In this document: piece by piece, positions 2,620 to 21,490 of the stretch
How positions within the stretch are numbered: position 1 is the stretch's first letter
How the letters are laid out: every line of letters begins with the position of its first letter
Source of the DNA: Flavitalea sp. BT771
GTDB lineage: Bacteria; Bacteroidota; Bacteroidia; Chitinophagales; Chitinophagaceae
DNA length: 24,000 nt
Direction: 5' to 3'
Assembly (NCBI RefSeq): GCF_030546645.1
Contig: NZ_JAUOTO010000003.1
Location: 254,956-278,955 of the forward strand
Program-made: the position numbers and the translations under genes
The notes under the pieces: generated by a model
Told to the model about the DNA's origin: nothing
The model's input: only the letters and a program-made list of their open reading frames with translations
Databases searched by the model: none

Positions 2620-2621
2620 TT

Positions 2622-5413: not shown

Positions 5414-7228
5414 ATGAATGAACGTCAACGTAAAACGGTACTATCCCTACTATTCCTCACGATCAATTGTTCTTGTTTGCTGGCCCAGGAGGCTGTCCTT
5501 CCTACCCCGTGGACGAAATCGGCGCTGGCTGCCAACGTCCCTTTACCCGAATATCCAAGGCCTCAGTTACAACGCAGCGACTGGATGTGCCTGAATGGCA
5601 AATGGGATTATCAGGGAGGAAAAGAAGTTGCGGGCGCGCTCGATCCGGTAAATCCGATTGCTTTTAAAAGCGGCGCTGAACAAATACTTGTTCCATATTG
5701 TCCGGAATCAGTGTTATCCGGCATCCGCCGTACACAGGAGATCAATATGTGGTACCGCCGACGTTTTATAATCCCTGCCGGCTGGAAAAACAAGCAGGTC
5801 ATTATTCACTTTGAAGCCGTGGCTCATCACGCCACTTTATTTGTGAACGGACATAAAGCAGGTGCCCATGCCGGGAGCTATGATGCATTCAGCTTTGACA
5901 TCACCCAGTACTTAATAAATGGGGAGAATACATTGGTAGTGGCAGCTCGAGATCTGAACGATGGCCGCGTACCTTCAGGAAAGAGCGGCCCCCGGGGTGA
6001 CTATACCTATTGTTCCGGCATATGGCAAACTGTGTGGCTGGAGCCTGTTAACAAAAATCATATCGAGAATATCCGTTTGCTGCCTGATCTGGCAAACAGC
6101 CGATTGAGAATACTGGTAACATCGCCGGGGCCAGGAAAGGTCAATGCGAATGCTTTTGATGGAGACAAGGTAGTTTCGGGAGCGGAATCATCCAGCGGCA
6201 CTTACTTTTACCTCCCCATTAAAACGCCGAAACCCTGGTCGCCGGATGATCCCTTTTTATATGATCTGACGATCAGATTGCAAGATGCCAATGGAAGTGT
6301 CACCGATGAAGTAAAAAGCTATTTCGGCATGCGCGATATTAAATTAGGCAGGGTTAACGGAGTTACCAGGCCTTTGATCAATGGCAAATTCATCCTGCAG
6401 CTTGGTCTGCTAGACCAGGGTTATTGGCCGGACGGGATCCTGACGGCCCCGACAGAGGAGGCGCTGAAATTTGATCTGCAATTTACCAAGAACGCCGGGT
6501 ACAATCTCATCAGGAAGCATATGAAAACAGAGCCTCAGCGGTTTTATTATTGGGCTGATAAATTGGGATTATTAGTTTGGCAGGATATGCCGGCCATATG
6601 GTATCAGGATGAGGATACCGCCAGAACAAGGACGGAATACAGGAAAGAGCTAAAAGAACTGATCGACGGACATTATAACGCGCCATCCATTATCACCTGG
6701 GTGCCTTTTAATGAAAATTGGGGTGCTTTTGATGTTAAAAATATCACAGACTGGGTCAAGCAATACGATCCGTCGAGACTTGTTAACGGCAATTCAGGGT
6801 TTAATAACAATCCTCCCTACCAAAAAGCATACGGTGACCCTGGAAACGGGGACTATGTGGACACACATATTTATGTGGGACCGGTTGGTGCTTCCGTGCC
6901 GGAAGAGCGCCGTGCGGCATCATTAGGCGAATTTGGCGGCGTGGGCCTGTTTGTGCGGGATCATATGTGGCCCATAGAAAACAACGCCTATGACTATGAG
7001 CCAACCAAAGCAAGGCTAACAGACAGGTACGTTTTTTTACTGGACCAGGTGGAACAGCTGATGAGATACAAGGGGCTGAGCGTGGCCATTTATACCCAAA
7101 CAACCGACGTGGAGCATGAAATAAATGGAGTGCTCACCTATGACAGAGTTATTGAAAAAATGGAAATGGAAAGGGTTAGAGCTGTCAATGAAGCCGTCAT
7201 TAAGGCAAGTTATAACCTGATGCCTTAA
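5414..7228 (+). CDS. Glycoside hydrolase family 2 enzyme (about 600 aa, secreted)
   Basis: The likely start is ATG 5414 (MNERQRKTVLSLLFLTINCSCLLAQ, a signal peptide); the track ORF starts at TTG 5405. It has the GH2-type N-terminal block LPEYPRPQLQRSDWMCLNGKWDY and the TIM-barrel acid/base region NAPSIITWVPFNENWG. Confidence 0.8.
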   Translation: MNERQRKTVLSLLFLTINCSCLLAQEAVLPTPWTKSALAANVPLPEYPRPQLQRSDWMCLNGKWDYQGGKEVAGALDPVNPIAFKSGAEQILVPYCPESVLSGIRRTQEINMWYRRRFIIPAGWKNKQVIIHFEAVAHHATLFVNGHKAGAHAGSYDAFSFDITQYLINGENTLVVAARDLNDGRVPSGKSGPRGDYTYCSGIWQTVWLEPVNKNHIENIRLLPDLANSRLRILVTSPGPGKVNANAFDGDKVVSGAESSSGTYFYLPIKTPKPWSPDDPFLYDLTIRLQDANGSVTDEVKSYFGMRDIKLGRVNGVTRPLINGKFILQLGLLDQGYWPDGILTAPTEEALKFDLQFTKNAGYNLIRKHMKTEPQRFYYWADKLGLLVWQDMPAIWYQDEDTARTRTEYRKELKELIDGHYNAPSIITWVPFNENWGAFDVKNITDWVKQYDPSRLVNGNSGFNNNPPYQKAYGDPGNGDYVDTHIYVGPVGASVPEERRAASLGEFGGVGLFVRDHMWPIENNAYDYEPTKARLTDRYVFLLDQVEQLMRYKGLSVAIYTQTTDVEHEINGVLTYDRVIEKMEMERVRAVNEAVIKASYNLMP

Positions 7229-7236
7229 TTGCGATA

Positions 7237-9111: not shown

Positions 9112-9147
9112 AATGTGTTGTTTGGTTGCGATGTGGTTAAGGCCTTG

Positions 9148-11391
9148 TTAACAAGTTCCACTATCACATATAAAATCAACCATGATTTCGGTGCCATCAT
9201 GACTTTTTATTTGAAATTTCGCATCAATGTCGCCACTAAGCCCATGCATCAGCTTCATTCCCATAGAAGGCTGTTTTTTACTGTCGAATGCTGGGGGCAG
9301 GCCAACCCCATTGTCTTTGATAGAAAGCAGGAAATGATTTGGCAAGGTCCTTTTTAATGAAATATCAATGGCTCCTTCTTTTTTATCGGGAAAAGCGTGC
9401 TTAAGAGAGTTGGTAATGGCTTCATTCAATATTAGTCCAAGCGGAACGCAATGCGAAACATCTAATTTTACCGGATCAACCTGTAAATTGAATTGAATCT
9501 TATGACCAGTGTGAAAACTATCTTTCAGGCAATCTACCAATTCATGAATGTAGTCTGTCATATTGATGGCAGATAGATTGTCTGATTGATATAGTCGCTG
9601 ATGAACCAAAGACATTGCCTGTATGCGTTGCTGGCTTTCAGTAACTGCCTGTATTGCCTCTTCACCTTGCAGGTATTCTGATTGTGTGCGCAGCAATGCC
9701 ATTACTGTATGGAAATTATTTTTTACCCGGTGGTGGATTTCCCTGACTAGCCATTCTTTCTCCTCTACCAAATGTTGCAGTGAATTATTTTTCTTCTCAA
9801 TTTGCTTTTGCTGAACATGCAGCTTTCTATTTGTTCGCTGTTTTAAAAGTGAATAATTGATAAGCAAACCAACTATAATAATAAGCAGAATGGCGACACC
9901 AAGGATCCAGCTCCTGGTGTTTTGCACTTGTGTTAACTCGGTTTGTTGAAGACGCCTCTCTTTCTCCAGTAGCCTGATGCTTTGCTCTTTTTTTTCTGTT
10001 TCATATTGTATGGTCAATTCTTCAATCTGCCTGCTTTTTCTCTCGTTAAAAATCGAATCATTTAGAAACTGATATTGTTGCAGGTCTTTGATAGCGGCGG
10101 ATGAATTCCCCAACGCGGAGTCGGCAGTGAACAGCATTTGAAATAAATCTCTTTGATTTAACAAACGGCCGTATGAAATATATGCTAGCGCGGTATCCAG
10201 ATAGATATGTGCTTTCTTAAATTGCCGGTGCTGCAAATAAAACCTTCCAATATCCATGTGGGTGATAGAGATGATCTCGTTTTCAGGGGGGGCATCCTTG
10301 TAATATGCGGCCACGGCCAAAAAATATTTTTCGGCTTCCGGGTACTGGTTCAGTCCATCAAAACAATATGCATAGTTTTGCGCAACGATTGCCTTTTCAA
10401 ATGGCTCTTGAGGTGGATAGGCCGCAACCAGGCTATCAACCAAAGCAAGGGCGCTTCCACACTTCCGTAGTTTTATCAATTGGCGGATGAGAAAACCTGC
10501 AGTTCTGAGGATGAATACCCGGTTTACTCTTTGTTCCATCCTTTTTTCAAGAGTTTTTCGATACCATTGACTGCTTTCTTCGGCGCGCCCCAGTTCGTCG
10601 TAAACCAGGGCAAGCTCCCCATAATACGTATCGGTACGTACAATGTCTTTGTTGCGCTCCACATTTTCAACGCATTTTACTGCGTATAAAAGTGATTTTT
10701 CATAGGACCCGCGGTACCTGTTGATAGCAGAAAGAAGAAAATAGGCGTTGAAAAGCCTGGTACTCCCTTTCTGGTGAAGTAAGTCCAATGCCTGTAGCAA
10801 TTCTTTTTCCGCCAAATTGGATCTCCCTGATTTAAATAGATAGTCAGCCAGATGTGTTCGGGCCTCTGCTTCTTTCTCGATGTTTCGGGCCTGTTTGTAT
10901 AATGTAATCGCCTTATTAAAAAAAGTATCAATGCCGGCAAAGGAATTTAGTTGCTTATTCATTCTCTGGGCTAACCGCAGCCATGTGCCGGCTTCCTCCT
11001 GAACGTCGCCCATTGTATGATAAAGGGATGCTACCTCAGAAAATATTTTTTTGCCTTCAGCCGTATCACCTCTGGCAAGATAGGCTTCCCCCACAAGCGA
11101 CATGCTTTCATACCTGAATTGTTTTAATTGAAGGGTATCGCTTAGCCTGATGGCATGATTAAAAATGTCAATGGCGGTGTCCCTCAAATACATCTTTTTA
11201 TCGCCGAACATCATCTGTTTAAGGTAAGTCCTGCCCAATTCGTCCAGAATTGAGATGCGGTTGCTATCCTGCTTGCTTTCCTGCAGCAGCAGCAGCAATT
11301 GACCCCGAGGCCTGGGGGATAACTGTTGCCCCGAACCTGGCACAACAGTTATTATCAAAAAGAATAAATATGTAATGGACTTTAGCATCAT
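9148..11391 (-). CDS. Sensor histidine kinase with a large TPR-like N-terminal region, one internal TM segment and a HisKA_2-type kinase core
   Basis: The H-box REIHHRVKNNFHTVMALL is HisKA_2-like. The N-box is LNEAITNSLKHAF and the G-box is DNGVGLP. The TM segment is WILGVAILLIIIVGLLINYSLL, and TPR-like helical repeats lie upstream. The track ORF starts at TTG 11418; ATG 11391 (MMLKSITYLFFLIITVVPGSG) is the more likely start. The stop lies 36 nt before the regulator start. Confidence 0.85.
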   Translation of the reverse strand: MMLKSITYLFFLIITVVPGSGQQLSPRPRGQLLLLLQESKQDSNRISILDELGRTYLKQMMFGDKKMYLRDTAIDIFNHAIRLSDTLQLKQFRYESMSLVGEAYLARGDTAEGKKIFSEVASLYHTMGDVQEEAGTWLRLAQRMNKQLNSFAGIDTFFNKAITLYKQARNIEKEAEARTHLADYLFKSGRSNLAEKELLQALDLLHQKGSTRLFNAYFLLSAINRYRGSYEKSLLYAVKCVENVERNKDIVRTDTYYGELALVYDELGRAEESSQWYRKTLEKRMEQRVNRVFILRTAGFLIRQLIKLRKCGSALALVDSLVAAYPPQEPFEKAIVAQNYAYCFDGLNQYPEAEKYFLAVAAYYKDAPPENEIISITHMDIGRFYLQHRQFKKAHIYLDTALAYISYGRLLNQRDLFQMLFTADSALGNSSAAIKDLQQYQFLNDSIFNERKSRQIEELTIQYETEKKEQSIRLLEKERRLQQTELTQVQNTRSWILGVAILLIIIVGLLINYSLLKQRTNRKLHVQQKQIEKKNNSLQHLVEEKEWLVREIHHRVKNNFHTVMALLRTQSEYLQGEEAIQAVTESQQRIQAMSLVHQRLYQSDNLSAINMTDYIHELVDCLKDSFHTGHKIQFNLQVDPVKLDVSHCVPLGLILNEAITNSLKHAFPDKKEGAIDISLKRTLPNHFLLSIKDNGVGLPPAFDSKKQPSMGMKLMHGLSGDIDAKFQIKSHDGTEIMVDFICDSGTC

Positions 11392-11504
11392 ATACTGGTA
11401 AGGAATACATAAAACCAAACCACTTTTCAGAGGGGTTCGCTTGATGCGTAAATTAGTTTCTTTACAACAGAAAAAAATGGATTCTTTAAAGTTAAAAATA
11501 ATAA

Positions 11505-11643: not shown

Positions 11644-12429
11644 ATGGGAAAAAGTCAGTCAAAGACAGTTGTGTTTATCACCGGCGCGTTTGTTCATCAT
11701 AGTTGCTGGGATGAATGGAAGACCTATTTTGAAAGTAAGGGTTACCAAACAGTGGCGCCTCCGTGGCCGCATAAAAACGCTTCGGCCGAGACATTGCGTA
11801 ATAGCCATCCCAACAACGAAATTGCATCCAACCGGCTGCCGGCATTAACTGATTACTATGATAATATTGTGAGGCAACTTCCTGAAAAGCCGATATTGAT
11901 TGGGCATTCTATCGGCGGGCTGATCGTTCAACTCTTATTGCAAAGAGGATTGGGCTTTTCAGGGGTTGCCATTCACCCGGTACCGCCGCAGGGAATAATT
12001 ACTTTCAAATTTTCTTTTTTGAAAGCAGGCTGGGGACCTCTTGGTTTTTTTACTTCGGTAAGAAAATCATTCCTTATGTCTTTCAGCCAATGGAAATATG
12101 CCTTTACAAATGGGATGGATTGCGATGCTCAAAAAGAAGCGTATTACAAATTTGCCATACCCGAGTCAAAGCTAATTGTAAGGGATACAATAACCAGCGC
12201 TGCTAAAGTACACTTCGAAAATCCTCATGCCCCGTTGCTATTGACTTCCGGCAGTGATGATCATACGATACCCCCCTCGTTGAATTACGCAAATTATAAA
12301 AAATATAAGAAAAGCAATTCGGTTACCGATTATAAAGAATTCAAAGGCAGGAATCATTTTGTCTTAGGCCAGCAAACCTGGAAAGAAGACGCCGATTATA
12401 TATTGGACTGGATTCGCAACCTGCCGTAA
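11644..12429 (+). CDS. Alpha/beta hydrolase (Ser nucleophile, no signal peptide)
   Basis: 261 aa. The nucleophile elbow is GHSIGG, with later SGSDDHTIP (Asp) and GRNHF (His) in the canonical Ser-Asp-His order. The N-terminus VVFITGAFVHHSCW is typical of small esterase-like alpha/beta hydrolases. Confidence 0.8.
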   Translation: MGKSQSKTVVFITGAFVHHSCWDEWKTYFESKGYQTVAPPWPHKNASAETLRNSHPNNEIASNRLPALTDYYDNIVRQLPEKPILIGHSIGGLIVQLLLQRGLGFSGVAIHPVPPQGIITFKFSFLKAGWGPLGFFTSVRKSFLMSFSQWKYAFTNGMDCDAQKEAYYKFAIPESKLIVRDTITSAAKVHFENPHAPLLLTSGSDDHTIPPSLNYANYKKYKKSNSVTDYKEFKGRNHFVLGQQTWKEDADYILDWIRNLP

Positions 12430-12496
12430 TGGTACCGCGGCTGTATTCTGGTCATTAACATTAAACTTCACCATAAATTTCAAAACAATTCTGATC

Positions 12497-13480
12497 ATGA
12501 AAAAACTGATACTGGGACTTTTTGTTGCAAGCTTTTTACTGGCAGCCTGCAACAATGAACCAAAAGACGCAAGTCCGGCGGCAGAGACCAAGGCGGACTC
12601 AGCCCACAACGTTTCGACCACTCAGCCGGCATCCCCCCCGCCAAATTTTAAACATGCCAGTGCGAAAATAAACGGTATAGATGTTCACTATGTGATCGGC
12701 GGATCGGGCGAACCGCTTGTCTTATTGCATGGCTTTGGTCAGAACTGGTATATGTGGAACCGCCTGCTGCCTGAGTTCTCCAAACATTTTACGGTGATAG
12801 CCCCTGACCTTCCGGGTCTTGGAGAGTCAGGCAAGCCGGATAGCGGCTATGATAAAAAGACGCTGGCTGCCTACATACATGGGCTTGTAAAACAACTGGG
12901 ATACGACCACATAAATCTGGCTGGCCATGATATTGGCCTGATGGTCGCCTATGCCTATGCAGCTCAATTTTCAGCCGAGGTAAAAAAACTGGCGTTGATG
13001 GATGCATTGCTTCCGGGCATTGAGCCGGTGTGGAGCCAGGTTAAATCCTCTGCCTGGTGGTTTGGTTTCTTTTCCTTTCCGGCATCCGGAGAATTGGTAG
13101 CCGGGAGAGAGCGTTTATTTCTTACCAACTTCTGGCCGGTGGTTGGCCGCGTAAAAGACCCGTTCACACCCGAAGAGGTCAATGAGTTCGTAAGGGCTTA
13201 TTCAGTAAAAGGGGCCACAGCAGGTACTTTTCACTGGTTTGGCGCTTTTGAGCAGGATGCAAAGGATAACAAAACGTTTATGAAAAACAAATTGAAAATG
13301 CCTTTGCTGGCAATGGGAGGTGAGTATTTCGGCGCCGGTTTTTTGGTGGATCACTGCAAATTGGTTGCAGAGAATGTGAAAGGCTCCAATATCAAAGGTT
13401 CAGGACATTGGGTCGTACAAGAGAATACATCACAGGTGCAAAAAGATCTACTCGATTTTTTCCTGGACAAAAAAAATTAA
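12497..13480 (+). CDS. Alpha/beta hydrolase, epoxide-hydrolase/dehalogenase-like (Asp nucleophile), lipoprotein
   Basis: The lipobox is LLAAC near the N-terminus. Motifs are LLHGFGQNWYMWNRL...APDLPGLGES, the nucleophile elbow GHDIG (Asp rather than Ser) and a C-terminal GSGHWVVQE histidine. Confidence 0.75.
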   Translation: MKKLILGLFVASFLLAACNNEPKDASPAAETKADSAHNVSTTQPASPPPNFKHASAKINGIDVHYVIGGSGEPLVLLHGFGQNWYMWNRLLPEFSKHFTVIAPDLPGLGESGKPDSGYDKKTLAAYIHGLVKQLGYDHINLAGHDIGLMVAYAYAAQFSAEVKKLALMDALLPGIEPVWSQVKSSAWWFGFFSFPASGELVAGRERLFLTNFWPVVGRVKDPFTPEEVNEFVRAYSVKGATAGTFHWFGAFEQDAKDNKTFMKNKLKMPLLAMGGEYFGAGFLVDHCKLVAENVKGSNIKGSGHWVVQENTSQVQKDLLDFFLDKKN

Positions 13481-13495
13481 CATATACCTAATAAA

Positions 13496-14272
13496 ATGAA
13501 GTTTATGAAAAAGCTTATTTATTCTTCTTTAATATTTTTTTCACTCTTAAATATTTCGGTTATGTCATACGCACAAACTGTGACGGGCATCAAAAATATC
13601 GTGATTGTTCACGGGGCTTTTGCCGACGGATCCGGCTGGCAAGGCGTATATGAAATACTTACAAAAAGAGGTTACCAGGTCACTATTGTCCAAAATCCTT
13701 TAACCTCCTTAAATGATGACGTTGCTGCTACCAACAGAATACTTGATAAACAGGATGGTCCAGTGGTGTTGGTTGGGCACTCCTGGGGCGGATCGGTAAT
13801 AACGCAAGCGGGCGTTCATTCCAAAGTGGCAGCGCTGGTGTATGTAGCTGCTTTTGTCCCGGACGTAAACGAAACCACATTTGATCTTATCAAGACTGCC
13901 CCGCCTGCCCCGGAGAACGGTATTCTTCCGCCAGATGAAAAGGGATTTGTGTATTATGACAAACAAAAGTTTCATGCGGGTTTTGCTGCTGACCTTCCTA
14001 AAGAAAAAGCAGATTTTATGTTTGCTTCCCAGGGGCCTATTGCCGCTCAATCGTTTGTTACCCCATTGACCCAGGCAGCCTGGAAAACCAGGCCGTCTTA
14101 TGCTATTGTCTCAGCTGAGGATAAAAGCATTAATCCTGATATTTTGCGATTCATGTACAAAAGAGCGGGTGCAAAAATTACGGAGTTGCATGGTAGTCAT
14201 GCTATTTTTATTTCGAAGGCTAAAGAGGTGGCCGACATAATTGAAATTGCCGCAAAAGGCACAAAATCCTGA
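13496..14272 (+). CDS. Alpha/beta hydrolase (Ser nucleophile), secreted
   Basis: Signal peptide MKFMKKLIYSSLIFFSLLNISVMSYAQ. Motifs are IVIVHGAFADGSGW, the elbow GHSWGG, VSAEDKSINP and a late GSHAIF. Confidence 0.8.
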   Translation: MKFMKKLIYSSLIFFSLLNISVMSYAQTVTGIKNIVIVHGAFADGSGWQGVYEILTKRGYQVTIVQNPLTSLNDDVAATNRILDKQDGPVVLVGHSWGGSVITQAGVHSKVAALVYVAAFVPDVNETTFDLIKTAPPAPENGILPPDEKGFVYYDKQKFHAGFAADLPKEKADFMFASQGPIAAQSFVTPLTQAAWKTRPSYAIVSAEDKSINPDILRFMYKRAGAKITELHGSHAIFISKAKEVADIIEIAAKGTKS

Positions 14273-14281
14273 GACTTTCTT

Positions 14282-14968
14282 TCACCGCACCTTTTCATCA
14301 CGCCGGCATGCCTTTAGCGCTTTTTGCATTTGAAAGAGCCCGGTTCCAAGAAGGGCGATCCCCACCAGCCAGTTAAAAATATTTTGATTCGCACGCAGGG
14401 AATAGATCAGCAAATGTCCTGCGGTCCCATAGACCATGAAGGCAAAGGAAGTACCGGCGCCAATGGCGATCACATAAGCATTGTAATCCCCCCTCGTGTC
14501 GGAGAGCAGTCCCTTTGCTTTCAGTACCGCCGTCCATCCCATCCAGAAGGGAAGGTGTAATGGATTGAGCAAGCTCAACACCAGGCCCGACACAAAAGGT
14601 GCGTGTCCTGCAAAGGGAACGACCATCGCCGCCTTTCGCATATGCCAGGCAGCTTCCAGGCTAATGAATGCAACCAGCAGTATGACGATTCCGGCCAGTA
14701 CGCGGAACCATTTTACGAGATGGGTCATGCCCGCCAGGCGTTTTACAGTGACCAACGCTATACGGACCATGCTTACTTCTATGAGGATGGCTCCCAGGCC
14801 AAAAAGGATAGCTCCCCCGACATCGCCATTGATCACCAGATCGGTGACGCCCACATTAAGGGTGCCTACCGGTAAAGAACCGGTAAAGCTGATTAAAAAG
14901 GCATATGCAGACAGCCTGAAAGGCTTTCCGGCCGGTGGGGCGGCGGATAGATATGGGACATCGTTCAT
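14282..14968 (-). CDS. LysE/RhtB-type small-molecule exporter (polytopic membrane protein)
   Basis: 228 aa with about six hydrophobic segments and an LLNPLHLPFWMGW block resembling the LysE-family NP motif. Its start overlaps the upstream gene's stop (ATGA). Confidence 0.55.
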   Translation of the reverse strand: MNDVPYLSAAPPAGKPFRLSAYAFLISFTGSLPVGTLNVGVTDLVINGDVGGAILFGLGAILIEVSMVRIALVTVKRLAGMTHLVKWFRVLAGIVILLVAFISLEAAWHMRKAAMVVPFAGHAPFVSGLVLSLLNPLHLPFWMGWTAVLKAKGLLSDTRGDYNAYVIAIGAGTSFAFMVYGTAGHLLIYSLRANQNIFNWLVGIALLGTGLFQMQKALKACRRDEKVR

Positions 14969-16731
14969 GTGATGAGCTTTTCGTAGCGGTTGTAATCTCT
15001 CAACATCTTCAGCCCTTCGAATGTACTCATCTGAGCAAGCCCCTTCTTCCGGGCGTTGGCCCGGCTGATGTCATATAACAATCGCCAGTGCCGGAAGATC
15101 TCTTTCCAGGCGAAGAATAGGGAATGCCGGGGATCATACATATGCGTTGGCTCACTGCCCGCACCATTTAGCTCGATGACGGAGAACTTTCGGCCTTCGC
15201 ATAGTTCTTCCCAGCTTTCGAATTTAACATCCAGCCTGCCAAAGTAAAATCCCGGGATCTGGCGGCAAAGCTCGTCGATCCGCTCTTCCAGGGCAGGGGT
15301 GATCCTGTCACTCCAGTCCAGGAATTTTGCCCCCCGGCTGTGGTTCCCATAGGGCACCAGCAGGCGCTCCTCTCCAGGCGAAGGTATCTGCTGAAGAAAG
15401 TCGCCATAGACGGCCCGCAACGCCGGCAACTGCAACACATGACGGTCATTTTTTCGCAGCAGCGCCTCCACCGTCGATACCCCGTCACCTGTTATGGTCA
15501 GCATCTCTTTGCCTACGATGCCGGAAATACGCCCTTTAGGCTCTCCGGGATATCGATAATAGAAGATCCCGGCTTCCTGGGGATAATCGATATATTCCTG
15601 CAGCAGGAAATCCACTTTGCTCCGGGCGCTGTATACGTACAGGTCACATTCATCCCGGAGCAGGCTCACCTGCATGCCCCGCTGCCCGATGTCCGGCTTG
15701 GCGATGAGCGGAAAATCCAATCCCTGTTCCGCCAGGGTTCGGCGGATCCCGATCACGGGCCGGCGCTTGGGACAATAGACAGTTTTGGGATAGGAGCCTT
15801 CCGGCATCAGGTCGTAGATCTGTTGCTTGGACTCCATCAGGAACCCGGCGTTGGTGATAGAAGGGTTCGCCGTACTAAAGAAAAAGAAGCTTCTGGCCTT
15901 GCAGCTCAGCCAGGCCCAATAAAGAAACGCCGGCGCGTAAATGACGGCAAATGGCCAGTATTCCCAGGATGTCAGCCGGATGCGGGTCCGCCGCAGGAAA
16001 CCCGCACGGCTTACTTTATTATTGGCGACGCTTATTCCCGCCTCATATCGCCTGTCGGTCTGCAGGTCTACATAATGGATGCTGCCCGCCCCAGCTCCGA
16101 TGCGAATGGAAGTAATGCTGACGGTGGAGATCCTTCCCTGCGGGTCGATAACGAGTCCCGCCCCTGGCGCGCTCACCGCGACAGACCGGTGGAAGTCCAG
16201 GATGCTCTCCGTGTCGATGCGGGAAGCTGTTTCGTGCCATTGTCTGAACAGCTGCTGCCGGCATTTTGCGGCTTCCTCATCATATAAGGTGGCGGAAGAC
16301 CAGATATGCGGGACATTATGACCTTGAAGGACAATATGCTTTCTCCGTCCGTCCCAACGGCATTCGAACAACTGTCCCCTTGTGAAAAGCACCAGTGTAA
16401 AGGGTTCGATCCCTTCCAATGCTTCGGCTCTGAAGGCTTGCACCGGGTCGGTTGCGCGGACGATCTCCAGGAAAACAATACCCCGGCTCCGCCGGTAGGC
16501 CATTGCCCGGTGATGTTTGACAAAAGCCCCATTCAGCAACACGCCAACATCCCCGCTGTTCTTCAGGGTAATCCAGCTGCCACCCGCCTCGCCATCTTTG
16601 GGAAAAAGCAGTTGGCTCCCGTCTGCATCAGCCTGGCAGGGGAAAACGGCGGGGGCACGTCCAGACCGTTCGTCCCGGTTGGAAGTCAGATAAATGCCGC
16701 CGGTGGTGGGTATAAAGGTTACTGTGCACAT
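14965..16731 (-). CDS. Fusion protein: N-terminal NRDE (TANGO2-like) domain, hydrophobic segment, C-terminal ATP-grasp ligase domain
   Basis: The protein starts MCTVTFIPTTGGIYLTSNRDE (Cys2 plus an NRDE motif) and contains GGSWITLKNSGDVGVLLNG. A hydrophobic stretch WEYWPFAVIYAPAFLYWAWLSC spans about aa 256-277. ATP-grasp-like blocks are PLIAKPDIGQRGMQV, LLQEYIDYPQEAGIFYY and VIELNGAGSEPTHMYDP. Confidence 0.7.
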   Translation of the reverse strand: MCTVTFIPTTGGIYLTSNRDERSGRAPAVFPCQADADGSQLLFPKDGEAGGSWITLKNSGDVGVLLNGAFVKHHRAMAYRRSRGIVFLEIVRATDPVQAFRAEALEGIEPFTLVLFTRGQLFECRWDGRRKHIVLQGHNVPHIWSSATLYDEEAAKCRQQLFRQWHETASRIDTESILDFHRSVAVSAPGAGLVIDPQGRISTVSITSIRIGAGAGSIHYVDLQTDRRYEAGISVANNKVSRAGFLRRTRIRLTSWEYWPFAVIYAPAFLYWAWLSCKARSFFFFSTANPSITNAGFLMESKQQIYDLMPEGSYPKTVYCPKRRPVIGIRRTLAEQGLDFPLIAKPDIGQRGMQVSLLRDECDLYVYSARSKVDFLLQEYIDYPQEAGIFYYRYPGEPKGRISGIVGKEMLTITGDGVSTVEALLRKNDRHVLQLPALRAVYGDFLQQIPSPGEERLLVPYGNHSRGAKFLDWSDRITPALEERIDELCRQIPGFYFGRLDVKFESWEELCEGRKFSVIELNGAGSEPTHMYDPRHSLFFAWKEIFRHWRLLYDISRANARKKGLAQMSTFEGLKMLRDYNRYEKLIT

Positions 16732-17219
16732 GTCTGTCGGAATTGTATGGTGGAAGCAGCAACGCCGAACTGCGCAGGCAATGTGATCTCGGCCACAGCG
16801 GCGATGCCGATCCGCAGCAGGGCCATGTGGTGCACCATGTGTTCGATGTTATAAAGCAATTCCCGGGAATAATTGGTGCGGATGGCAAAGGGCTCGGGAT
16901 CCCCGGGCGTAAGATGAGCTATCAGTATCAGATCTTTGTCCGGCCGGTCCACCGCAAGTGCTGTCGCCGACAGCTGGCGGATGGCGTGCGACAGGCTTAT
17001 TTCCAGCAGATGGCTCCGGCTGCGCCGGTCATAATTGACGGTGCCGCTGTCATATCCTTTATCCAGTTCCTGAAAGAATTCAAGGATGTGCCGGACATGC
17101 TGTCCGATGGTCGCCGTTGATAGCAGGTCGATAGGAGCAGTGTATTGATGGTCCGTGAGGGGCTCCAGTGCTTCCTGCAATTGCCGGAGTAGCTGCTGGA
17201 TGGGGTATTTTAAATGCAT
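16719..17219 (-). CDS. DinB-family (DinB_2-like) four-helix-bundle metalloprotein
   Basis: 166 aa. His-containing blocks GQHVRHILEF and IEHMVHHMALL are arranged as in the DinB/YfiT-like His triad. Its 3' end overlaps the start of the fusion gene by 13 nt. Confidence 0.6.
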   Translation of the reverse strand: MHLKYPIQQLLRQLQEALEPLTDHQYTAPIDLLSTATIGQHVRHILEFFQELDKGYDSGTVNYDRRSRSHLLEISLSHAIRQLSATALAVDRPDKDLILIAHLTPGDPEPFAIRTNYSRELLYNIEHMVHHMALLRIGIAAVAEITLPAQFGVAASTIQFRQTCAQ

Positions 17220-17234: not shown

Positions 17235-18139
17235 TTATTTTTTTGCGTTTTCTAATTTTGCCACCTCCGGTAAAGACATTAATACGGCTTTGATCTCAGC
17301 GAAATGCGCCCAGGGGATAAAATGATTGGCGCCCCGAAGAATGGTGGCCGTAATTTTCCGGGCGTGAATGAGCTTGTTTTTCAAGAAATCGACATTACTC
17401 ACCGGCACCAACGGATCCTTATCGCCATGCACGATCCAGACGGGACACGTGATCTTCTCCAATTCGGGCTCCATCTTTTTTGGTCGGATTTTAAATACCA
17501 GAGTTCTTCATTGGCGGGGCGCATGGCGCCGGGAACCCAGTAATTGAGGGGCGTTCTAAAGAGCAGGGGCCGCCATTTTTCCGGATCTTCCAGGTAGGGC
17601 GAAACCGAAGCTGCCAGCAACACCAGTCCCGAGAATACGCCCGGATAATCCATAGCCAGCCTGATCACCAGGGGACCTCCCATGGAATGTCCTACGGCAT
17701 AAATGGGCTTCCCATTTTTTATTTGCTGTAAAGCCGGACCTATCAATCCGGATTGTCCTTCCAGATCCCTGGCCTTCCCAAAACTGCTGAAACCGAAGCC
17801 CGGTCGGTCTATGGATACCATCCGGAATTTCTCCAGCAGGTCTTTATCCTGCATGTACTGTTCAAATGCGTTCCAGCTGCCCGGCGAGCCGTGCACAAAA
17901 AGAAGGGTAGGACACGTGTCCTTCCCTGTTTGGACATAATGCATGGCATACCCTTCCACCCGGTAAGTATGGATGAATAGTGACACGCCCTTCTGCCCAA
18001 AGCTTCGCTGTGCAGCAGGATCCTCCGTCCTGAATTTCAGGGCAAACTGCGCGAAAACCAGCCAAGCTACCGGAATAATTAACAGCAGTGTTAACATCGT
18101 CCTACCTTTTGATTTTCGCTTGTTCATGATATCCTGCAA
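17235..18139 (-). pseudogene. Alpha/beta hydrolase interrupted by a single-nucleotide frameshift in an A6 (T6 on the plus strand) run
   Basis: ORF 17399-18139 carries an N-terminal TM anchor, HGSPGSW and the elbow GHSMGG. ORF 17235-17474 carries the C-terminal CPVWIVHGDKDPLVP and GANHFIPW (Asp and His). The two join as ...LKSDQKKMEPELEKITCPVW if one more A is added to the run at 17476-17481. The total length of 905 nt is one short of in-frame. Confidence 0.75.
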
Positions 18140-18210
18140 AATAAGTAACTCCCTTACACTCTATTTGTCGGGTACTTTACTTAACCCTTACAAATGATTG
18201 TCTTTTTTGA

Positions 18211-18507
18211 GCAATAAATTACGCGGCGGGAATGCCAGTATCTCTGAAGGATTTCAGAAGGAAATAGGTTTTGGTTGACTTCTGGGCCAGTTGGTGTGGT
18301 CCCTGCCGTGCTGGAAACCCGAACGTTGTGGCGATGTACATTAAGTACAAGGATAGGAATTTTACAGTTCTGAGTGTGTCGCTCGATCAGCCCGGAGGTA
18401 AAAAAGCCTGGCTGGATGAAGATCCACAAGATCACTTGGCTTGGACCCATGTCTCCGATCTTCAGTTCTGGAACAATGCGGTGGCGAAACTCTACGGGGC
18501 TAATTGA
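18211..18507 (+). pseudogene. TlpA/AhpC-like thioredoxin-fold thiol:disulfide oxidoreductase remnant
   Basis: The frame reads ...[26 protein letters not shown]..., with an in-frame TAG at 18265-18267 where family members have Tyr. The WCGPC motif is at 18292-18306. There is no N-terminal signal or lipobox (a stop lies at 18208-18210). The sequence is truncated after AKLYG, so the C-terminal cis-Pro region is missing. Confidence 0.7.
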
Positions 18508-18637: not shown

Positions 18638-21490
18638 ATGAAAACATCAGGCTTTTTGCTGCTGATATTTATTTGTCCGTTAATTGTAGTCGCACAAACG
18701 ACTGGCAGCAGGCAATACTCAAGAGCGCATATTTGTATAGACACCGGCTGGCGATTCGCCTATGGCCATCCGTTTGATGCCGCTAAAGATTTTAACAACG
18801 GCACGGGCTATTTCTCCTATTTTGCCAAAGCGGGCTATGGTGATGGTGCCGCCGCCGCTGATTTTGATGACAGGCCCTGGCGTAAGCTCGATTTACCCCA
18901 TGACTGGGCGGCCGAACTTGGTTTTAGCGAAAAAGGTAGCTATAGCCATGGATTTAAAGCCCTGGGTCGAAACTTCCCGGATAATAGCGTGGGTTGGTAC
19001 CGGAAAAAGCTTAATATACCACAGCAGGATTATGGGCGGCATATCAGCATTGCATTTGATGGTGTTTTCCGTAACTCTGCCGTTTGGGTAAATGGACATT
19101 ACCTGGGGACCGAGCTAAGCGGCTATAACGGTTTTGAATATGATATTACCCAACTTTTAAACTACGGCGGCGATAATACCATTGCCGTAAGGGTAGATGC
19201 TACTATGGAAGAAGGCTGGTTTTATGAGGGGGCTGGCATTTACAGGCACGTGTGGCTCAATAAAACCTCGCCCCTGCATGTTGCAGCCAATGGTACATTT
19301 GTGAGCAGCAGTGTTGTTAATAATAAGACGCTGTTAACGATTAAGACCGATATAAGCAATTACGACACCGGGGCAGGTAATTTTGCCATTGTACAAAAAG
19401 TTTATGATCGTGAAGGTCATTTGCTGGCTACCCAACAAACGGATGGCCATTCTCTGCAACCTTTTGAATCGGGCGAATACAGCAGTCAACTGGAAGTATC
19501 TCACCCTACATTATGGTCGGTTGATACGCCTTACCTGCACCGGTTGGTTACTGCCATTTTGGTAAACAATGTGCCCGTTGATGAATATGTAACGCGTTTT
19601 GGCATACGTACCCTGCGTTTTGATGCCAACACCGGGTTTTACCTAAACGGTAAAAGGCTCGAAATAAAAGGCACCAATAATCACCAGGAGCACGCGGGCG
19701 TTGGAACAGCTATACCCGACGAACTGCAATACTATAGAATAGCCCGTTTAAAGGAAATGGGCAGCAACGCTTACCGCTGCTCGCATAATCCGCCCGCGCC
19801 CCAATTGCTGGATGCCTGCGACAGTTTGGGTATGCTGGTGATTGACGAAAATCGCCTCATGGGCATAGACGAGTACCACCTGGTTAATCTGAAAAAAATG
19901 ATTGACCGCGACCGTAACCATCCAAGTGTGATCAGTTGGTCGGTAGGTAACGAGGAGTGGGGGATTGAAAACTCGGAAACCGGTGCACGTATTGCATCAA
20001 CCATGCAGGCCTTTGTAAAAAGCCTGGACACCACACGGGCGGTGACCGCAGCCTTTAGCGGCGGCTGGGGGAAGGGCTTATCAGCTGTGATGGATGTTAT
20101 AGGCTTTAACTACATAGCACAGGAAAACCCGGATGCGCAGCACCAGAAATATCCTGAACAAAAAGGCTGGGGGACCGAGGAAGGATCTACTTTTGCTACC
20201 CGTGGTGTTTATTTTAGTAACGATTCACTCCACTACAAATCGGCTTATGATGCCAAGCCCAGGCCCAATGCCTATAGCATTGAAGAGGGCTGGAATTACT
20301 ATGCCAAACGGCCTTTTTTAGCGGGCATGTTCATCTGGACGGGCTTTGATTACCGTGGCGAGCCTACCCCCTATAGCTGGCCATCTATTGGATCCTATTT
20401 TGGGATGCTCGATCAGTGCGGATTTCCCAAGGACGATGCCTGGTACCTGCAGGCCTGGTGGGGCGGCAAGCCGGTGCTGCACCTTTTGCCGCACTGGAAC
20501 TGGAAAGGCAAAGAGAACCAACCTATAAATGTATGGGCCTACAGCAACTGTGAAGAAGTGGAATTGTTTTTAAACGGCAAAGCCCAGGGCAAAAAAACAA
20601 TGGTCAAAAACGGGCACCTGGAATGGACGGTTCCCTACACCCCCGGTACGTTAAAAGCCATCGGCTACACCGGCGGTAAGCAGGTATTAACTGAAACCAT
20701 ACAAACTACCGGTGCCCCGGAAGGCATCGCCCTTGAAGCCCATAAAAACGCCCTGAAAGCCGATGGAGAGGATATCGCTGTCATTAAAGTGTGCCTGGTG
20801 GATAGAAAGGGACTGCCCGTACCTGATGCCGGTAACGAAGTGGATTTTAGGCTGGAAGGCCCCGGCAGGATCATTGGAGTGGGCAACGGCAATCCCACCT
20901 CGCTTGAACCCGATAAATATATGGATACGATTGTAAATATGCCTGTTGAGGACTTGAAAGAGTTGCCTATACCGGACACTATCGCCAAAAGCGAAACAGC
21001 CGAAACCTTTGACGACAAGGGCTGGAAAAAGGCGTTTACAAATATTGAAGATACCAGCGTAAAAGCCTGGGTCTATCGCGGCAGCATTAATTTAACTGAT
21101 GATCTAACGCGTTTGCCGCTCACCTTTTATTATAAAAGCATCGGCCGTAAGCAGTCGGTATATTTCAATGGTCATTTGTTGGCCGCCAATGTTGATTATC
21201 ATAAAGACCAGGATGTGTTTAGCATCAGTAAGGCCTTTTTAAAGCCAGGGAAAAACAGCATTGTTATTGTTGCCTTGCCCACAAAAAAGATACATCCGTG
21301 GGATAACCTTAACAAGGACCCGGGCGTAATTCAGTTTAAAGCGCCCGCCACTGCCTGGAAAAGAAAGCTATTTAATGGCCTGGCTCAGGTCATTGTTCAA
21401 TCGGACGGAAGCCATACAGGGAACATCACCTTAACTGCTACTTCAGCTGGTTTAAAGGGGAAAAGCCTTATTATTAACACCAGTAAATAG
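18638..21490 (+). CDS. Glycoside hydrolase family 2 beta-galactosidase-like enzyme (950 aa, secreted, extra C-terminal beta-sandwich domains)
   Basis: Signal peptide MKTSGFLLLIFICPLIVVAQ. GH2 blocks are WRKLDLPHDW, ISIAFDGVFRNSAVWVNGHYLG, GIYRHVWL, YRCSHNPPAPQLLDACDSLGMLVIDE and the acid/base region RNHPSVISWSVGNEEWG. Confidence 0.9.
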   Translation: MKTSGFLLLIFICPLIVVAQTTGSRQYSRAHICIDTGWRFAYGHPFDAAKDFNNGTGYFSYFAKAGYGDGAAAADFDDRPWRKLDLPHDWAAELGFSEKGSYSHGFKALGRNFPDNSVGWYRKKLNIPQQDYGRHISIAFDGVFRNSAVWVNGHYLGTELSGYNGFEYDITQLLNYGGDNTIAVRVDATMEEGWFYEGAGIYRHVWLNKTSPLHVAANGTFVSSSVVNNKTLLTIKTDISNYDTGAGNFAIVQKVYDREGHLLATQQTDGHSLQPFESGEYSSQLEVSHPTLWSVDTPYLHRLVTAILVNNVPVDEYVTRFGIRTLRFDANTGFYLNGKRLEIKGTNNHQEHAGVGTAIPDELQYYRIARLKEMGSNAYRCSHNPPAPQLLDACDSLGMLVIDENRLMGIDEYHLVNLKKMIDRDRNHPSVISWSVGNEEWGIENSETGARIASTMQAFVKSLDTTRAVTAAFSGGWGKGLSAVMDVIGFNYIAQENPDAQHQKYPEQKGWGTEEGSTFATRGVYFSNDSLHYKSAYDAKPRPNAYSIEEGWNYYAKRPFLAGMFIWTGFDYRGEPTPYSWPSIGSYFGMLDQCGFPKDDAWYLQAWWGGKPVLHLLPHWNWKGKENQPINVWAYSNCEEVELFLNGKAQGKKTMVKNGHLEWTVPYTPGTLKAIGYTGGKQVLTETIQTTGAPEGIALEAHKNALKADGEDIAVIKVCLVDRKGLPVPDAGNEVDFRLEGPGRIIGVGNGNPTSLEPDKYMDTIVNMPVEDLKELPIPDTIAKSETAETFDDKGWKKAFTNIEDTSVKAWVYRGSINLTDDLTRLPLTFYYKSIGRKQSVYFNGHLLAANVDYHKDQDVFSISKAFLKPGKNSIVIVALPTKKIHPWDNLNKDPGVIQFKAPATAWKRKLFNGLAQVIVQSDGSHTGNITLTATSAGLKGKSLIINTSK

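Follow-up and report, generated by a model that had tools for sequence, protein, structure and literature searches.

A lineage-specific fusion of an NRDE/TANGO2 domain to an ATP-grasp ligase in a putative stress-controlled operon of Flavitalea sp. BT771

In E. coli, the glutathionylspermidine synthetase/amidase Gss carries an N-terminal Cys-nucleophile amidase and a C-terminal ATP-grasp-type amide ligase in one polypeptide, in a setting of redox stress. Detoxification by mycothiol and bacillithiol involves a DinB-type S-transferase, an amidase (Mca/Bca), a ligase (MshC/BshC) and the export of a mercapturate. The DedA/VTT proteins are a family of lipid scramblases and flippases. To our knowledge, neither any NRDE/TANGO2 protein nor the ATP-grasp subfamily described here has a demonstrated enzymatic activity, and a search of the literature found no report on a system that joins the two.

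The window analysed here, a stretch of 24,000 nucleotides from Flavitalea sp. BT771, contains an ORF on the reverse strand (14965..16731, -; ATG start) that encodes a protein of 588 aa with the N-terminus MCTVTF...LTSNRDE. The protein has three parts – an NRDE/TANGO2 Cys-Ntn domain, an aromatic hydrophobic segment and an ATP-grasp ligase. A sequence-only reading of the window had proposed this layout. Its coordinates for the NRDE domain (aa 1-235, nt 16027-16731) and for the hydrophobic stretch (aa 256-277, nt 15901-15966) are correct, its three ATP-grasp blocks fall at aa 343-355, 376-390 and 518-528, and both domain assignments hold, that of NRDE by Pfam and Foldseek and that of ATP-grasp by fold, profile and invariant residues. 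It had also allowed that the long ORF might be an assembly artefact. The ORF is genuine: a 100% identical protein is present in NCBI, and full-length homologues are common. There are 2454 homologues at E<=1e-3, and dozens are full-length (550-620 aa, 50-86% identity). No signal peptide was found in the fusion protein. Its AF2 model has a pLDDT of 82.9 and a pTM of 0.63, with an uncertain arrangement of the domains relative to each other.

Among the 82 related loci compared (Bacteroidota), the two domains are encoded by a single ORF in 23 and by adjacent NRDE and ATP-grasp genes in about 55, and NRDE has been lost in 3. The Rosetta-stone test suggested by the sequence-only reading came out positive: most relatives have separate NRDE and ATP-grasp genes that are adjacent, often overlapping and kept in the same order. 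What most Bacteroidota encode in two neighbouring genes is genuinely fused in this ORF, and covalent fusion is a minority, lineage-specific state that has arisen and been undone repeatedly; a rough tree implies at least 8 fusion or fission changes. The ligase family also occurs in LysE::ATP-grasp fusions (P0183 and P0213), DedA(VTT)::ATP-grasp fusions and a hydrolase::DedA::ATP-grasp fusion (P0273), and DinB, NRDE, DoxX or YHS genes lie near the translocator::ATP-grasp fusions, including those in Leptospiraceae. Three Cytophagales loci and the Leptospiraceae version have no NRDE, which is therefore an accessory and not a core component. Where both are present, the NRDE and ATP-grasp activities may act on the same substrate or amide.

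The NRDE/TANGO2 domain (aa 1-235; 16027..16731, -) matches Pfam TANGO2 (PF05742) over aa 14-167 at 33.2 bits (gathering cut-off, 22.6). In Foldseek, this part of the AF2 model matches human TANGO2 (8sv7/9bwa) at E 3e-10, with a TM-score (target) of 0.58-0.64; further matches to CV2077 (3gvz), IAT, BSH and PVA place it in the alpha-beta-beta-alpha Ntn fold. An hhalign comparison with human TANGO2 (probability 88.6%, E 2.7e-6) pairs C2 with C2, the NRDE motif N18-E21 with N25-E28, R25 with R32, N67 with N75 and R83 with R88. This alignment spans aa 1-107 only, and so covers the position of TANGO2 Asn75 but not those of Asn157 and Lys166. C2 and N18-E21 are invariant in alignments of 30 and 22 sequences, and Cys2, N18, R19, D20, E21 and N67 are absolutely invariant in fused and split forms alike, whose overall identity is 34-60%; R25 and R83, the residues aligned to Arg32 and Arg88 of TANGO2, are invariant as well. 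The predicted nucleophile is Cys2, which would be exposed upon removal of Met1. In the paper on the crystal structure of TANGO2, that protein is proposed to be a Cys-Ntn hydrolase that uses the same catalytic residues, with Arg32/Arg88 as its anion site. The domain thus shares with the NRDE/TANGO2 family (PF05742; 8sv7/9bwa; 3gvz) the N-terminal Met-Cys, the NRDE motif, the Ntn fold, the Asn75 equivalent and the equivalents of the anion-binding arginines, but it belongs to a divergent subfamily, with a Pfam score of only 33 bits and a TANGO2 alignment confined to aa 1-107, and in every case it accompanies, or is fused to, a putatively membrane-tethered ATP-grasp.

The C-terminal part of the protein (aa 286-588; 14965..15876, -) is an ATP-grasp catalytic core of the type of cyanophycin synthetase (CphA) and of bifunctional glutathione synthetase (GshF). 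Because it reaches no Pfam ATP-grasp cut-off (RimK gives 12.7 bits, against 21), the assignment rests on fold, profile and residues; the NCBIfam RimK, LysX and CPS-like matches are also far below their cut-offs. Foldseek matches CphA1/CphA2, GshF, Ddl, ArgX and PurD at E 4e-10 to 5e-6 (of the order of 1e-10 to 1e-6), and a profile compared with PDB sequences matches CphA2 (7ta5) at E 2.4e-6. The ATP/Mg residues K345, R499, D501, E520 and N522 are invariant, as is Q378, and K345, D501, E520 and N522 align to the K, D and E-x-N of CphA2, as does the block VTGDG.ST(I/V)..LL. The core terminates in two long helices. The best fold and profile matches are to the G-domain of CphA2/CphA1 and the ATP-grasp module of GshF, with which the ATP/Mg residues and the V(T/I)GDG.STI..L insert are shared, but the E-values are only 1e-6 to 1e-3 and only the ATP-grasp core aligns, not the multi-domain architecture – there are no M or N domains, no gamma-Glu-Cys ligase and no N-terminal pre-ATP-grasp (Rossmann-like) domain. 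About 60 residues precede the central domain here, and the place of the pre-ATP-grasp domain is taken by a WE[YF]WP hydrophobic element, which CphA and GshF lack.

The fusion joint is a variable linker with a basic amphipathic helix (aa 236-255; 15967..16026, -). Its pLDDT is below 50 at aa 238-241, its length differs by 0-40 residues among homologues, and in split relatives both the NRDE stop and the ATP-grasp start fall in this region. It is followed by the aromatic hydrophobic segment WEYWPF..VY.P...YW.WLS.KARSFFFF (aa 256-285; 15877..15966, -), the N-terminal element of the ATP-grasp module. Helix 261-279 of this segment is modelled with a pLDDT of 86-94; E257, Y258, W259, P260, P267 and W272 are invariant, and the motif WE[YF]WP...NP..GG is conserved throughout the family, in standalone, LysE-fused and DedA-fused members. 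Its KD19 hydropathy reaches at best 1.19, against a family median of 0.96. A crude Hessa sum comes to +5.2 kcal/mol (+5 to +6 kcal/mol in the test for a spanning helix), the Wimley-White interfacial energy is -10.3 kcal/mol, and the flanks carry charges of +4 and +2. By these four measures the segment is not a bilayer-spanning single-pass helix. The sequence-only reading had been puzzled by the topology and had suggested a peripheral or re-entrant anchor, and this suggestion is supported because the segment scores as interfacial rather than transmembrane (mean KD19 of about 1.0-1.2, interfacial energy of about -10 kcal/mol) with both flanks positive. A monotopic or interfacial membrane anchor is predicted from sequence scales and from the logic of the fusions, in which the segment comes after a cytosolic NRDE domain in one case and after a LysE domain in another. 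The relevant end of LysE is presumed to be cytoplasmic from the separate 228-aa LysE homologue in the window, rather than from the fused proteins.

The operon and its regulatory context, which the sequence-only reading had not seen, hold most of the functional information. The genes form a tight operon in the order alpha/beta hydrolase, DinB-like, NRDE::ATP-grasp (the third gene) and LysE. The first gene (17235..18139, -; Pfam Abhydrolase_1, 4e-19) consists of two overlapping ORFs (17399..18139 and 17235..17474), with a frameshift at an A-run near 17470-17480. The two fragments are 46% and 44% identical to one 290-aa orthologue (L071), and 35-37% identical to orthologues from Leptospiraceae and other DedA::ATP-grasp loci. 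From its N-terminal sequence the hydrolase is probably membrane-anchored, with its domain in the periplasm. After a 15-nt gap comes a DinB/YfiT-like four-helix-bundle metalloprotein of 166 aa (16719..17219, -). It scores 21.4 bits to Pfam DinB, under the cut-off of 23; its AF2 model (pLDDT 88.8) has DinB, YjoA, YizA, YfiT and Mtb MST as best Foldseek matches, and the invariant H41/H44, H127 and H131 provide the His metal triad of the four-helix bundle. Between its stop and the NRDE start the two frames overlap by 13 nt (ACATGTGCACAGTAA). DinB is directly upstream in 79 of the 82 loci and is also found in Leptospiraceae and other phyla; LysE or an alpha/beta hydrolase lies downstream. The fourth gene (14282..14968, -), whose start overlaps the stop of the fusion gene by 4 nt (ATGA), encodes a LysE-type translocator of 228 aa with six hydrophobic segments (Pfam LysE, 33.1 bits vs 25.6), and LysE is downstream in 45 of the 82 loci. 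Redox-related neighbours in the relatives include a YHS (seleno)protein, DoxX, a secreted MsrB, and peroxiredoxin-like, AhpD-like and thioredoxin-like proteins. In 4 loci a standalone CoaB-like cysteine ligase is inserted into the operon. DinB-[VTT::ATP-grasp] is immediately preceded, at one locus, by genes for OlsB-like (Acetyltransf_5) and PlsC-type acyltransferases; neither is a recurrent neighbour in the set of 82 Bacteroidota loci.

The first operon gene has its ATG at 18126, and ca. 40 nt upstream of this lies a candidate ECF-sigma-type promoter motif, TGTAAGGGTTAAGTAAAGTACCCGAC (TGTAAGG-N15-CGAC; 18167..18192, -), which may control the operon. The pattern TGTAAGG-N15-CGAC is matched once in the window but in none of 100 shuffles. 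The strict motif was seen only in this window and in Sphingobacteriaceae, where it occurs 17 times in 9 loci; the copies whose place was determined precede either an ECF sigma gene or YHS/DM13, with which the homologous operon begins. In relatives, an ECF sigma and an RsrA-like ZAS anti-sigma form a pair preceded by the motif. All 15 of the 15 anti-sigmas have the pattern C-x(about 25)-H-x3-C-x2-C and no transmembrane segment. The pair lies outside this window and is adjacent in only about 20 of the 82 loci.

The interpretation that we favour, with moderate confidence, is that of a redox-stress pathway with a translocated product, in which an amidase and an amide ligase cooperate at the membrane face. 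The switch for the operon would be an ECF sigma that is kept in check by a small zinc-binding anti-sigma of the RsrA-like ZAS type in the cytoplasm, and the inducing signal would likely be thiol or oxidative stress. The conserved WEYWP segment, which would enter and leave on the same side, would hold the ATP-grasp flat against the inner membrane, on its cytoplasmic face. The ATP-grasp would use ATP to convert a carboxylate to an acyl-phosphate and then join this to an amine, giving an amino-acid-derived amide, probably amphipathic or thiol-bearing. In the direction of flux that we infer, this amide would be handed to the adjacent LysE translocator, or to DedA in other lineages, and the membrane-anchored alpha/beta hydrolase and the periplasmic redox proteins would act on the outer side. 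NRDE, through Cys2, would act on an amide of this pathway by cleavage or transfer, either supplying the substrate or reversing or editing the product of the ligase, as in glutathionylspermidine synthetase/amidase.

Gss has in common with this arrangement an amidase and an ATP-dependent ligase in one chain and the setting of redox stress, and the amidase Cys could be a redox switch. The Gss amidase, however, is a CHAP and not an Ntn/NRDE domain, and Gss is soluble, without a membrane segment or translocator partner. There is no homology over the whole protein, and no CHAP or GSP_synth Pfam match in the fusion protein, so that the likeness is one of analogy only. The mycothiol/bacillithiol cycle has the same set of functions – DinB protein, amidase, ATP-dependent ligase and exporter – and control by a ZAS anti-sigma and ECF sigma is reminiscent of SigR-RsrA, but DinB alone is homologous, at the superfamily level, and any thiol here is hypothetical. 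With MprF the shared feature is an enzyme at the cytoplasmic face that forms an amino-acid conjugate and is coupled or fused to a membrane translocator, though MprF uses aminoacyl-tRNA and another fold, and a lipid substrate is only proposed here.

Such a lipid substrate is a possible but unlikely reading. The ATP-grasp would then add an amine (amino acid, taurine or similar) to a free carboxylate in the head group of a membrane lipid, for instance of an ornithine lipid, a glycine lipid or an N-acyl amino acid, DedA/LysE would flip the product, and NRDE would cleave a fatty-acyl or a head-group amide as a relative of acid ceramidase, NAAA and bile-salt hydrolase. This would suit the strong conservation of the interfacial aromatic segment beside the catalytic core, the fusion of the ligase to DedA/VTT and the conserved hydrolase partner. 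The OlsB-like and PlsC-type genes upstream of DinB-[VTT::ATP-grasp] would also fit, but they are found at a single locus and do not recur in the Bacteroidota set. LysE-type proteins are mainly exporters of small solutes, and we know of no ATP-grasp that acts on a lipid. Also in favour of a lipid substrate are the folds nearest to NRDE, which are lipid-amide hydrolases, and the proposal in the crystal-structure paper that TANGO2 acts on fatty-acyl derivatives. In Gluconacetobacter, an ATP-dependent synthetase joins taurine to ornithine lipid (cerilipin), with no gene known (PMC12971839); it forms an amide on a membrane-lipid carboxylate, a possible chemistry for an ATP-grasp at the membrane face, and no evidence tying it to this ATP-grasp family was found. 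We think it unlikely, too, that the product is a small soluble cysteine- or amino-acid-derived amide, made as by GshF or Gsp synthetase and exported by LysE/DedA to periplasmic redox enzymes, with DinB as thiol S-transferase and NRDE as the matching amidase (cf. Gsp amidase, Mca, Bca). GshF and CphA are among the closest ATP-grasp relatives, DinB has an intact His triad on a fold like that of the bacillithiol/mycothiol transferases, and the RsrA-like ZAS anti-sigma with its ECF sigma, the neighbouring secreted MsrB, peroxiredoxin-like, YHS (seleno)protein and DoxX, the CoaB-like ligase in 4 loci and the LysE-type exporter all point the same way. Yet this reading does not say why a ligase with a soluble substrate should keep the interfacial segment throughout the family, the DedA fusions and membrane-anchored hydrolase are left unexplained, and the thiol is hypothetical.

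It is improbable, in our estimate, that NRDE is no hydrolase at all and, in the manner of the PAC2 chaperones with their non-catalytic Ntn fold, serves as a binding, carrier or assembly module from which the ligase receives a ligand. Not even human TANGO2 has been demonstrated to be a hydrolase, work cited in its structure paper reports CoA/acyl-CoA binding by it, and the domain is dispensable in some lineages; the invariance of Cys2, N18, R19, D20, E21 and N67 is nevertheless a pattern typical of a catalytic site. Less probable still is the addition of amino acids to a protein C-terminus (cf. RimK, TTL, LysX), with NRDE trimming the tag as predicted for Anbu/ATP-grasp operons. Ntn (Anbu) operons have been tied to ATP-grasp in the literature, but the RimK, LysX and TTL-type sequence matches are weak and far under cut-offs, CphA and GshF being best by structure and profile. 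The coupling to translocators and the membrane is consistent, with no candidate acceptor protein, and the overlap of the DinB gene with MCTV accounts for the conserved CAQ at the DinB C-terminus. We give almost no credence to an assembly or frameshift artefact, or to a true single-pass TM helix that would put NRDE in the periplasm. The close relative L001 (ligase part 78% identical) is divided by overlapping frames, and the neighbouring hydrolase gene does have a frameshift, but NCBI has an identical protein of 588 aa and the single ORF recurs in 22 other species-level loci; against the helix stand the lack of a signal peptide, a KD19 (1.0-1.2) below 1.6, positive charge on both flanks, and the need of ATP-grasp enzymes for cytosolic ATP.

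A further reading, which we regard as unlikely, is that NRDE/TANGO2 is a working Cys-Ntn amidase that ancestrally cleaves an anionic amide (phosphate, sulfonate or carboxylate) at the membrane, the amide being made or re-made by the dedicated membrane-face ATP-grasp during thiol or oxidative stress. Candidate compounds are pantetheine/CoA-type or N-acyl-amino-acid-type molecules. If this were true, the bacterial substrate would name the long-sought substrate class of human TANGO2, and the DinB/ATP-grasp/translocator/hydrolase/YHS/DoxX set would be an unrecognised envelope redox-defence pathway of Bacteroidota and Spirochaetota. A conserved fusion in a putative stress-controlled operon offers a testable setting for the chemistry of the family of TANGO2, a human disease protein.

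The ORF at 14965–16731 on the minus strand has an ATG start and 588 codons, and begins MCTVTFIPTTGGIYLTSNRDE. The sequence-only reading described it as an NRDE (TANGO2-like) domain joined through a hydrophobic segment to an ATP-grasp ligase, and its coordinates for the ORF and its parts were all correct on rechecking. The N-terminal part is indeed a member of the NRDE/TANGO2 family: Pfam TANGO2 (PF05742) matched residues 14–167 with 33.2 bits, against a cut-off of 22.6. The N-terminal half of an AlphaFold2 model of the full protein (30 homologues as input; mean pLDDT 82.9, pTM 0.63) resembles the human TANGO2 crystal structures 8sv7 and 9bwa (E 3e-10 to 1e-9), the bacterial NRDE protein CV2077 (3gvz), and several Cys-Ntn enzymes – isopenicillin-N acyltransferase, bile-salt hydrolase, and penicillin V acylase.

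Profile comparison with human TANGO2 paired C2 with C2, N18-R19-D20-E21 with N25-R26-D27-E28, N67 with N75, R25 with R32, and R83-G84 with R88-G89. In the human sequence used for one of these comparisons, residues 18–75 were consistent with the other alignment. Every mapped residue is invariant in the homologues. The 2026 TANGO2 structure paper, which states that the substrate is unknown, gives a putative Ntn catalytic set of Cys2, Asn25, Arg26, Asp27, Asn75, Asn157, and Lys166, of which Asn157 and Lys166 are outside the mapped positions, and a sulfate-binding triad of Arg32, Lys56, and Arg88 about 11 Å from Cys2.

No ATP-grasp profile matched the C-terminal domain at its cut-off (Pfam RimK reached 12.7 of the required 21 bits, and matches to NCBIfam models of RimK, LysX, and CPS-like type were far under their thresholds), so the call of an ATP-grasp fold needed structural evidence. 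The C-terminal half of the model resembles cyanophycin synthetases, GshF, D-Ala-D-Ala ligases, and ArgX. A sequence search of the PDB with the whole protein returned only TTLL11 (E 0.9); a profile of 27 C-terminal domains matched CphA2 (7ta5, E 2.4e-6; 8fxh, 1e-5) and GshF (3ln6, 1e-3). This alignment pairs the ATP-binding lysine (K345) and the Mg ligands (D501, E520-x-N522), and K345, D501, E520, N522, R499, and Q378 are invariant among homologues. The fold matches and profile-versus-PDB matches uphold the proposed ATP-grasp domain despite the sub-cut-off family profiles.

The fusion is genuine. NCBI lists an identical protein under the name 'NRDE family protein [Flavitalea sp. BT771]', and many of the 2454 homologues are 550–620 aa long with 50–86% identity. 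A species-level genome scan found at least 600 matching stretches, with 590 confirmed among the matches listed; the best 80 of the at least 590 confirmed stretches are all from Bacteroidota (Chitinophagales, Sphingobacteriales, Cytophagales, and Flavobacteriales).

ORFs were called on 82 loci, the window included. A single fused ORF was found in 23 of these, and separate NRDE (224–247 aa) and ATP-grasp (344–357 aa) genes in about 55, with gaps of 0–13 nt or overlaps between them. The Rosetta-stone inference, for which the two domains were sought as adjacent separate genes, is strongly supported by this pattern. In one related locus (L001), 78% identical in the ligase part and found on four contigs, the two are split by overlapping frames. 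When ligase domains were arranged in a rough neighbour-joining tree, the split state fell at the root and at least eight changes were required. The fusion is lineage-specific, and covalent linkage of NRDE and ligase is optional. NRDE is missing from three Cytophagales loci. In two of them, from Parachryseolinea and Dawidia (L081:5947–7041 and L083:5947–7038), the ligase ORF, immediately after DinB, begins MRTVT, which looks like a relic of MCTVT in which Cys2 became Arg and NRDE was internally deleted from a once-fused gene.

In the window, the fusion is the third of four genes packed on the minus strand. A membrane-anchored alpha/beta hydrolase (17235–18139) is followed after 15 nt by a DinB-like protein of 166 aa (16719–17219), which overlaps the NRDE::ATP-grasp gene by 13 nt; the fusion in turn overlaps a gene for a LysE-type translocator (14282–14968) by 4 nt. 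The hydrolase gene consists of two overlapping ORFs of 246 and 79 aa, with a break near 17470–17480 at an A-run (GACCAAAAAAGATGG). In its orthologues one protein of about 290 aa takes the place of the two ORFs, and the break could be a sequencing error or a genuine pseudogene. The overlap of the DinB stop and the NRDE start (16719–16731, minus strand) reads ACATGTGCACAGTAA. Because the invariant MCTV start of NRDE overlaps the DinB stop, DinB proteins across Bacteroidota share a conserved CAQ ending. This ending was considered as an acceptor site for the ligase and rejected: the overlap with the MCTV codons explains it, and it is absent from a locus without NRDE (L084), where the DinB C-terminus differs.

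The same neighbourhood recurs in relatives. A DinB-like gene, with DinB fold and His triad confirmed, is directly upstream in 79 of the 82 loci; LysE is present in 45, and 13 carry an orthologous alpha/beta hydrolase; the usual place is downstream of the ligase. Often found upstream are DoxX, in 58 loci, and secreted YHS (seleno)proteins (NF041384), of which 60 loci have one or two, and DM13, YceI-like, and p310 genes are also found there. MsrB, peroxiredoxin-like, AhpD-like, thioredoxin-like, and Crp genes are scattered among the neighbours. In L010 (4367–5050) and three other loci of cluster c42, probably of Sphingobacteriaceae, the operon includes, between YHS and DoxX, a standalone CoaB-only gene whose 227-aa product corresponds to the phosphopantothenoylcysteine-synthetase-like C-terminal domain of DFP. 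This gene is of note given the reported links of TANGO2 to CoA or vitamin B5. Another locus has a second, paralogous standalone ATP-grasp (L038:3210–4253; 37% identity, same WELWP hydrophobic start) 1.7 kb upstream of its DoxX-DinB-NRDE-ATP-grasp cluster.

The window's flanking genes (53–11418 and 18638–21490) appear unrelated to the operon. They are a polysaccharide-utilisation-type set – a SusD-like protein, two DUF3863/DUF3864 proteins, and two GH2 glycosidases – together with a sigma-54 response regulator and a TPR/HisKA_2 histidine kinase. Between them, convergent on the LysE gene, are three consecutive, mutually distant alpha/beta hydrolase genes (11644–14272, plus strand; 261, 327, and 258 aa), two with signal-like N-termini and none orthologous to the operon hydrolase.

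Regulation of these operons was examined across the 82 loci, about 20 of which encode an ECF sigma factor (TIGR02943-like) with an anti-sigma of 80–115 aa. The pattern C-x(about 25)-H-x3-C-x2-C is shared by all 15 anti-sigmas examined, none of which has a membrane segment; in several (e.g. those of L015 and L001) the ligands fall at C11, H37, C41, and C44, which is the RsrA pattern. A de novo search upstream of the sigma genes found the dyad TGTAAGG-N15-CGAC, and the same search in operon-upstream regions gave AT-rich noise only. The strict motif occurs 17 times in nine Sphingobacteriaceae loci of Pedobacter, Mucilaginibacter, and Daejeonella (L007, L010, L015, L017, L018, L026, L027, L033, and L037), against an estimated chance expectation of about 0.5 matches in about 1.1 Mb. 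Placed copies immediately precede either the sigma gene or the gene that opens the YHS/DM13...NRDE::ATP-grasp operon. The window has exactly one copy (18167–18192, minus strand), about 40 nt ahead of the start codon (ATG) of the gene that heads the operon, and 100 shuffles of the window gave no match. The operon in the window is thus probably targeted by an orthologous ECF sigma whose gene is elsewhere in the genome. A sigma-70 promoter scan gave nothing useful near the operon, terminator-like matches were in no excess over chance, and an Rfam scan of the window matched no family, so that no riboswitch hints at a ligand. A 78-aa ORF (18271–18507, plus strand) that runs divergently from the operon promoter has a WCGPC thioredoxin/AhpC-TSA/Redoxin core, covering profile positions of about 30–100 only, and looks like a truncated TlpA/peroxiredoxin-like gene.

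The hydrophobic segment belongs to the ATP-grasp module as its N-terminal element, and split ligases begin 10–25 residues ahead of it. It is unusually conserved (W256, E257, Y258, W259, P260, Y265, P267, Y271, and W272), with a conserved K/R-A-R-S-F-F-F-F after Y271-W272 and then N289-P290. The pattern [WF]E[YF]W...Y.P...NP.I..GG..ESK is retained in distant standalone, LysE-fused, and DedA-fused members. Its best 19-residue Kyte-Doolittle mean is 1.19 (family median 0.96), against a usual transmembrane threshold of about 1.6. A crude position-independent Hessa sum of +5 to +6 kcal/mol is unfavourable for insertion, and the Wimley-White interfacial energy is about −10 kcal/mol. Both flanks are basic (+1 to +4 on the N-side, +2 on the C-side). 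The segment is preceded by a signal-less cytosolic NRDE domain in one fusion and by a LysE domain in another. Applied to the window's separate LysE protein, rather than to the fused ones, the positive-inside rule predicts a cytoplasmic C-terminus from the six hydrophobic segments and the basic tail. ATP-grasp enzymes require cytosolic ATP. The peripheral or re-entrant anchor that the sequence-only reading proposed is favoured by the hydropathy, interfacial energy, basic flanks, and fusion partners; most likely the segment is a monotopic or re-entrant anchor that enters and leaves the bilayer at the cytoplasmic side.

An exhaustive profile search (E<=1e-30) placed the ligase family at 1403 clusters at 50% identity. 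Standalone proteins of 340–365 aa make up most of the family; other architectures are LysE::ATP-grasp, DedA(VTT)::ATP-grasp, hydrolase::DedA::ATP-grasp, ATP-grasp::YqcI/YcgG, and ATP-grasp::MORN. Two proteins, P0258 (589 aa) and P0191 (558 aa), carry the ATP-grasp at the N-terminus, ahead of a YqcI/YcgG domain or MORN repeats. A Leptospiraceae MAG locus has DinB_2, [DedA::ATP-grasp], DoxX, and YHS without NRDE. Another has DinB, NRDE, and [hydrolase::DedA::ATP-grasp] with an adjoining peroxiredoxin. A third has ECF sigma, a small protein, DoxX, a 157-aa protein, NRDE, and [LysE::ATP-grasp]; the 157-aa protein, in the DinB position, has no Pfam match. Because these contexts repeat the same gene set, the core of the system is DinB, a membrane-face ATP-grasp, and a translocator, often with hydrolase, DoxX, and YHS, and NRDE is a frequent accessory.

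Domain identities, conserved catalytic residues, and gene linkage with both fusion and fission are established here, as are the interfacial character of the segment, the translocator linkage, the promoter motif of ECF type, and the redox flavour of the neighbourhood. The ATP-grasp ligase would act at the cytoplasmic membrane face to form an amide product, LysE or DedA would carry this product across the membrane, and NRDE would cleave or transfer an amide within the same pathway. The product could belong to an amino-lipid head-group ligase and remodelling system, or it could be a soluble thiol or peptide made for export, and the two are about equally likely. The only direct hint of an amino-lipid substrate is a locus (L087:3851–8421) in which an OlsB/GlsB-like N-acyltransferase (Acetyltransf_5) and a PlsC-type acyltransferase are directly upstream of DinB-[X::DedA::ATP-grasp]. 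The closest pathway analogy is the mycothiol/bacillithiol cycle of S-transferase, amidase, ligase, and export. Glutathionylspermidine synthetase/amidase, a single chain that combines a Cys amidase with an ATP-grasp-type ligase, is the closest architectural precedent for NRDE::ATP-grasp. A further locus (L088:1493–5525) has DedA::ATP-grasp preceded by the orthologous alpha/beta hydrolase and by a group II PLP amino-acid decarboxylase that could supply the amine substrate, with YHS and ECF sigma nearby. An argument for taurine synthesis from this locus was dropped, the CDO_I match of the decarboxylase being weak (E 0.004, 40 residues) and judged unreliable.

Literature searches on NRDE or TANGO2 together with ATP-grasp, on 'NRDE family protein' or COG3332, and on YHS with DoxX and DinB turned up no relevant paper. 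The sequence-only reading was essentially right overall, and the covalent fusion it described represents one form of a pathway that is widespread, uncharacterised, stress-regulated, and membrane-associated.

In humans, deficiency of TANGO2 causes a severe metabolic disorder. The activity of TANGO2/NRDE is unsettled, with haem transfer, acyl-CoA binding, and Ntn hydrolase activity among the proposals (TANGO2 structure paper). The bacterial NRDE branch retains the mapped proposed catalytic residues and anion-binding arginines, and is tied by gene order, translational coupling, and repeated fusion to one predicted membrane-tethered ATP-grasp amide ligase, with which it shares an operon that includes a translocator and redox-stress regulators. 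The ATP-grasp subfamily is itself large, uncharacterised, and unusual for its conserved interfacial membrane element and its LysE and DedA fusions. The tie to one defined enzyme opens the question to experiment in soil bacteria that can be cultured, among them Pedobacter, Chitinophaga, Dyadobacter, and Flavobacterium, and so offers a route to TANGO2-family chemistry – the ligase product, if found, would give the probable class of the NRDE substrate.
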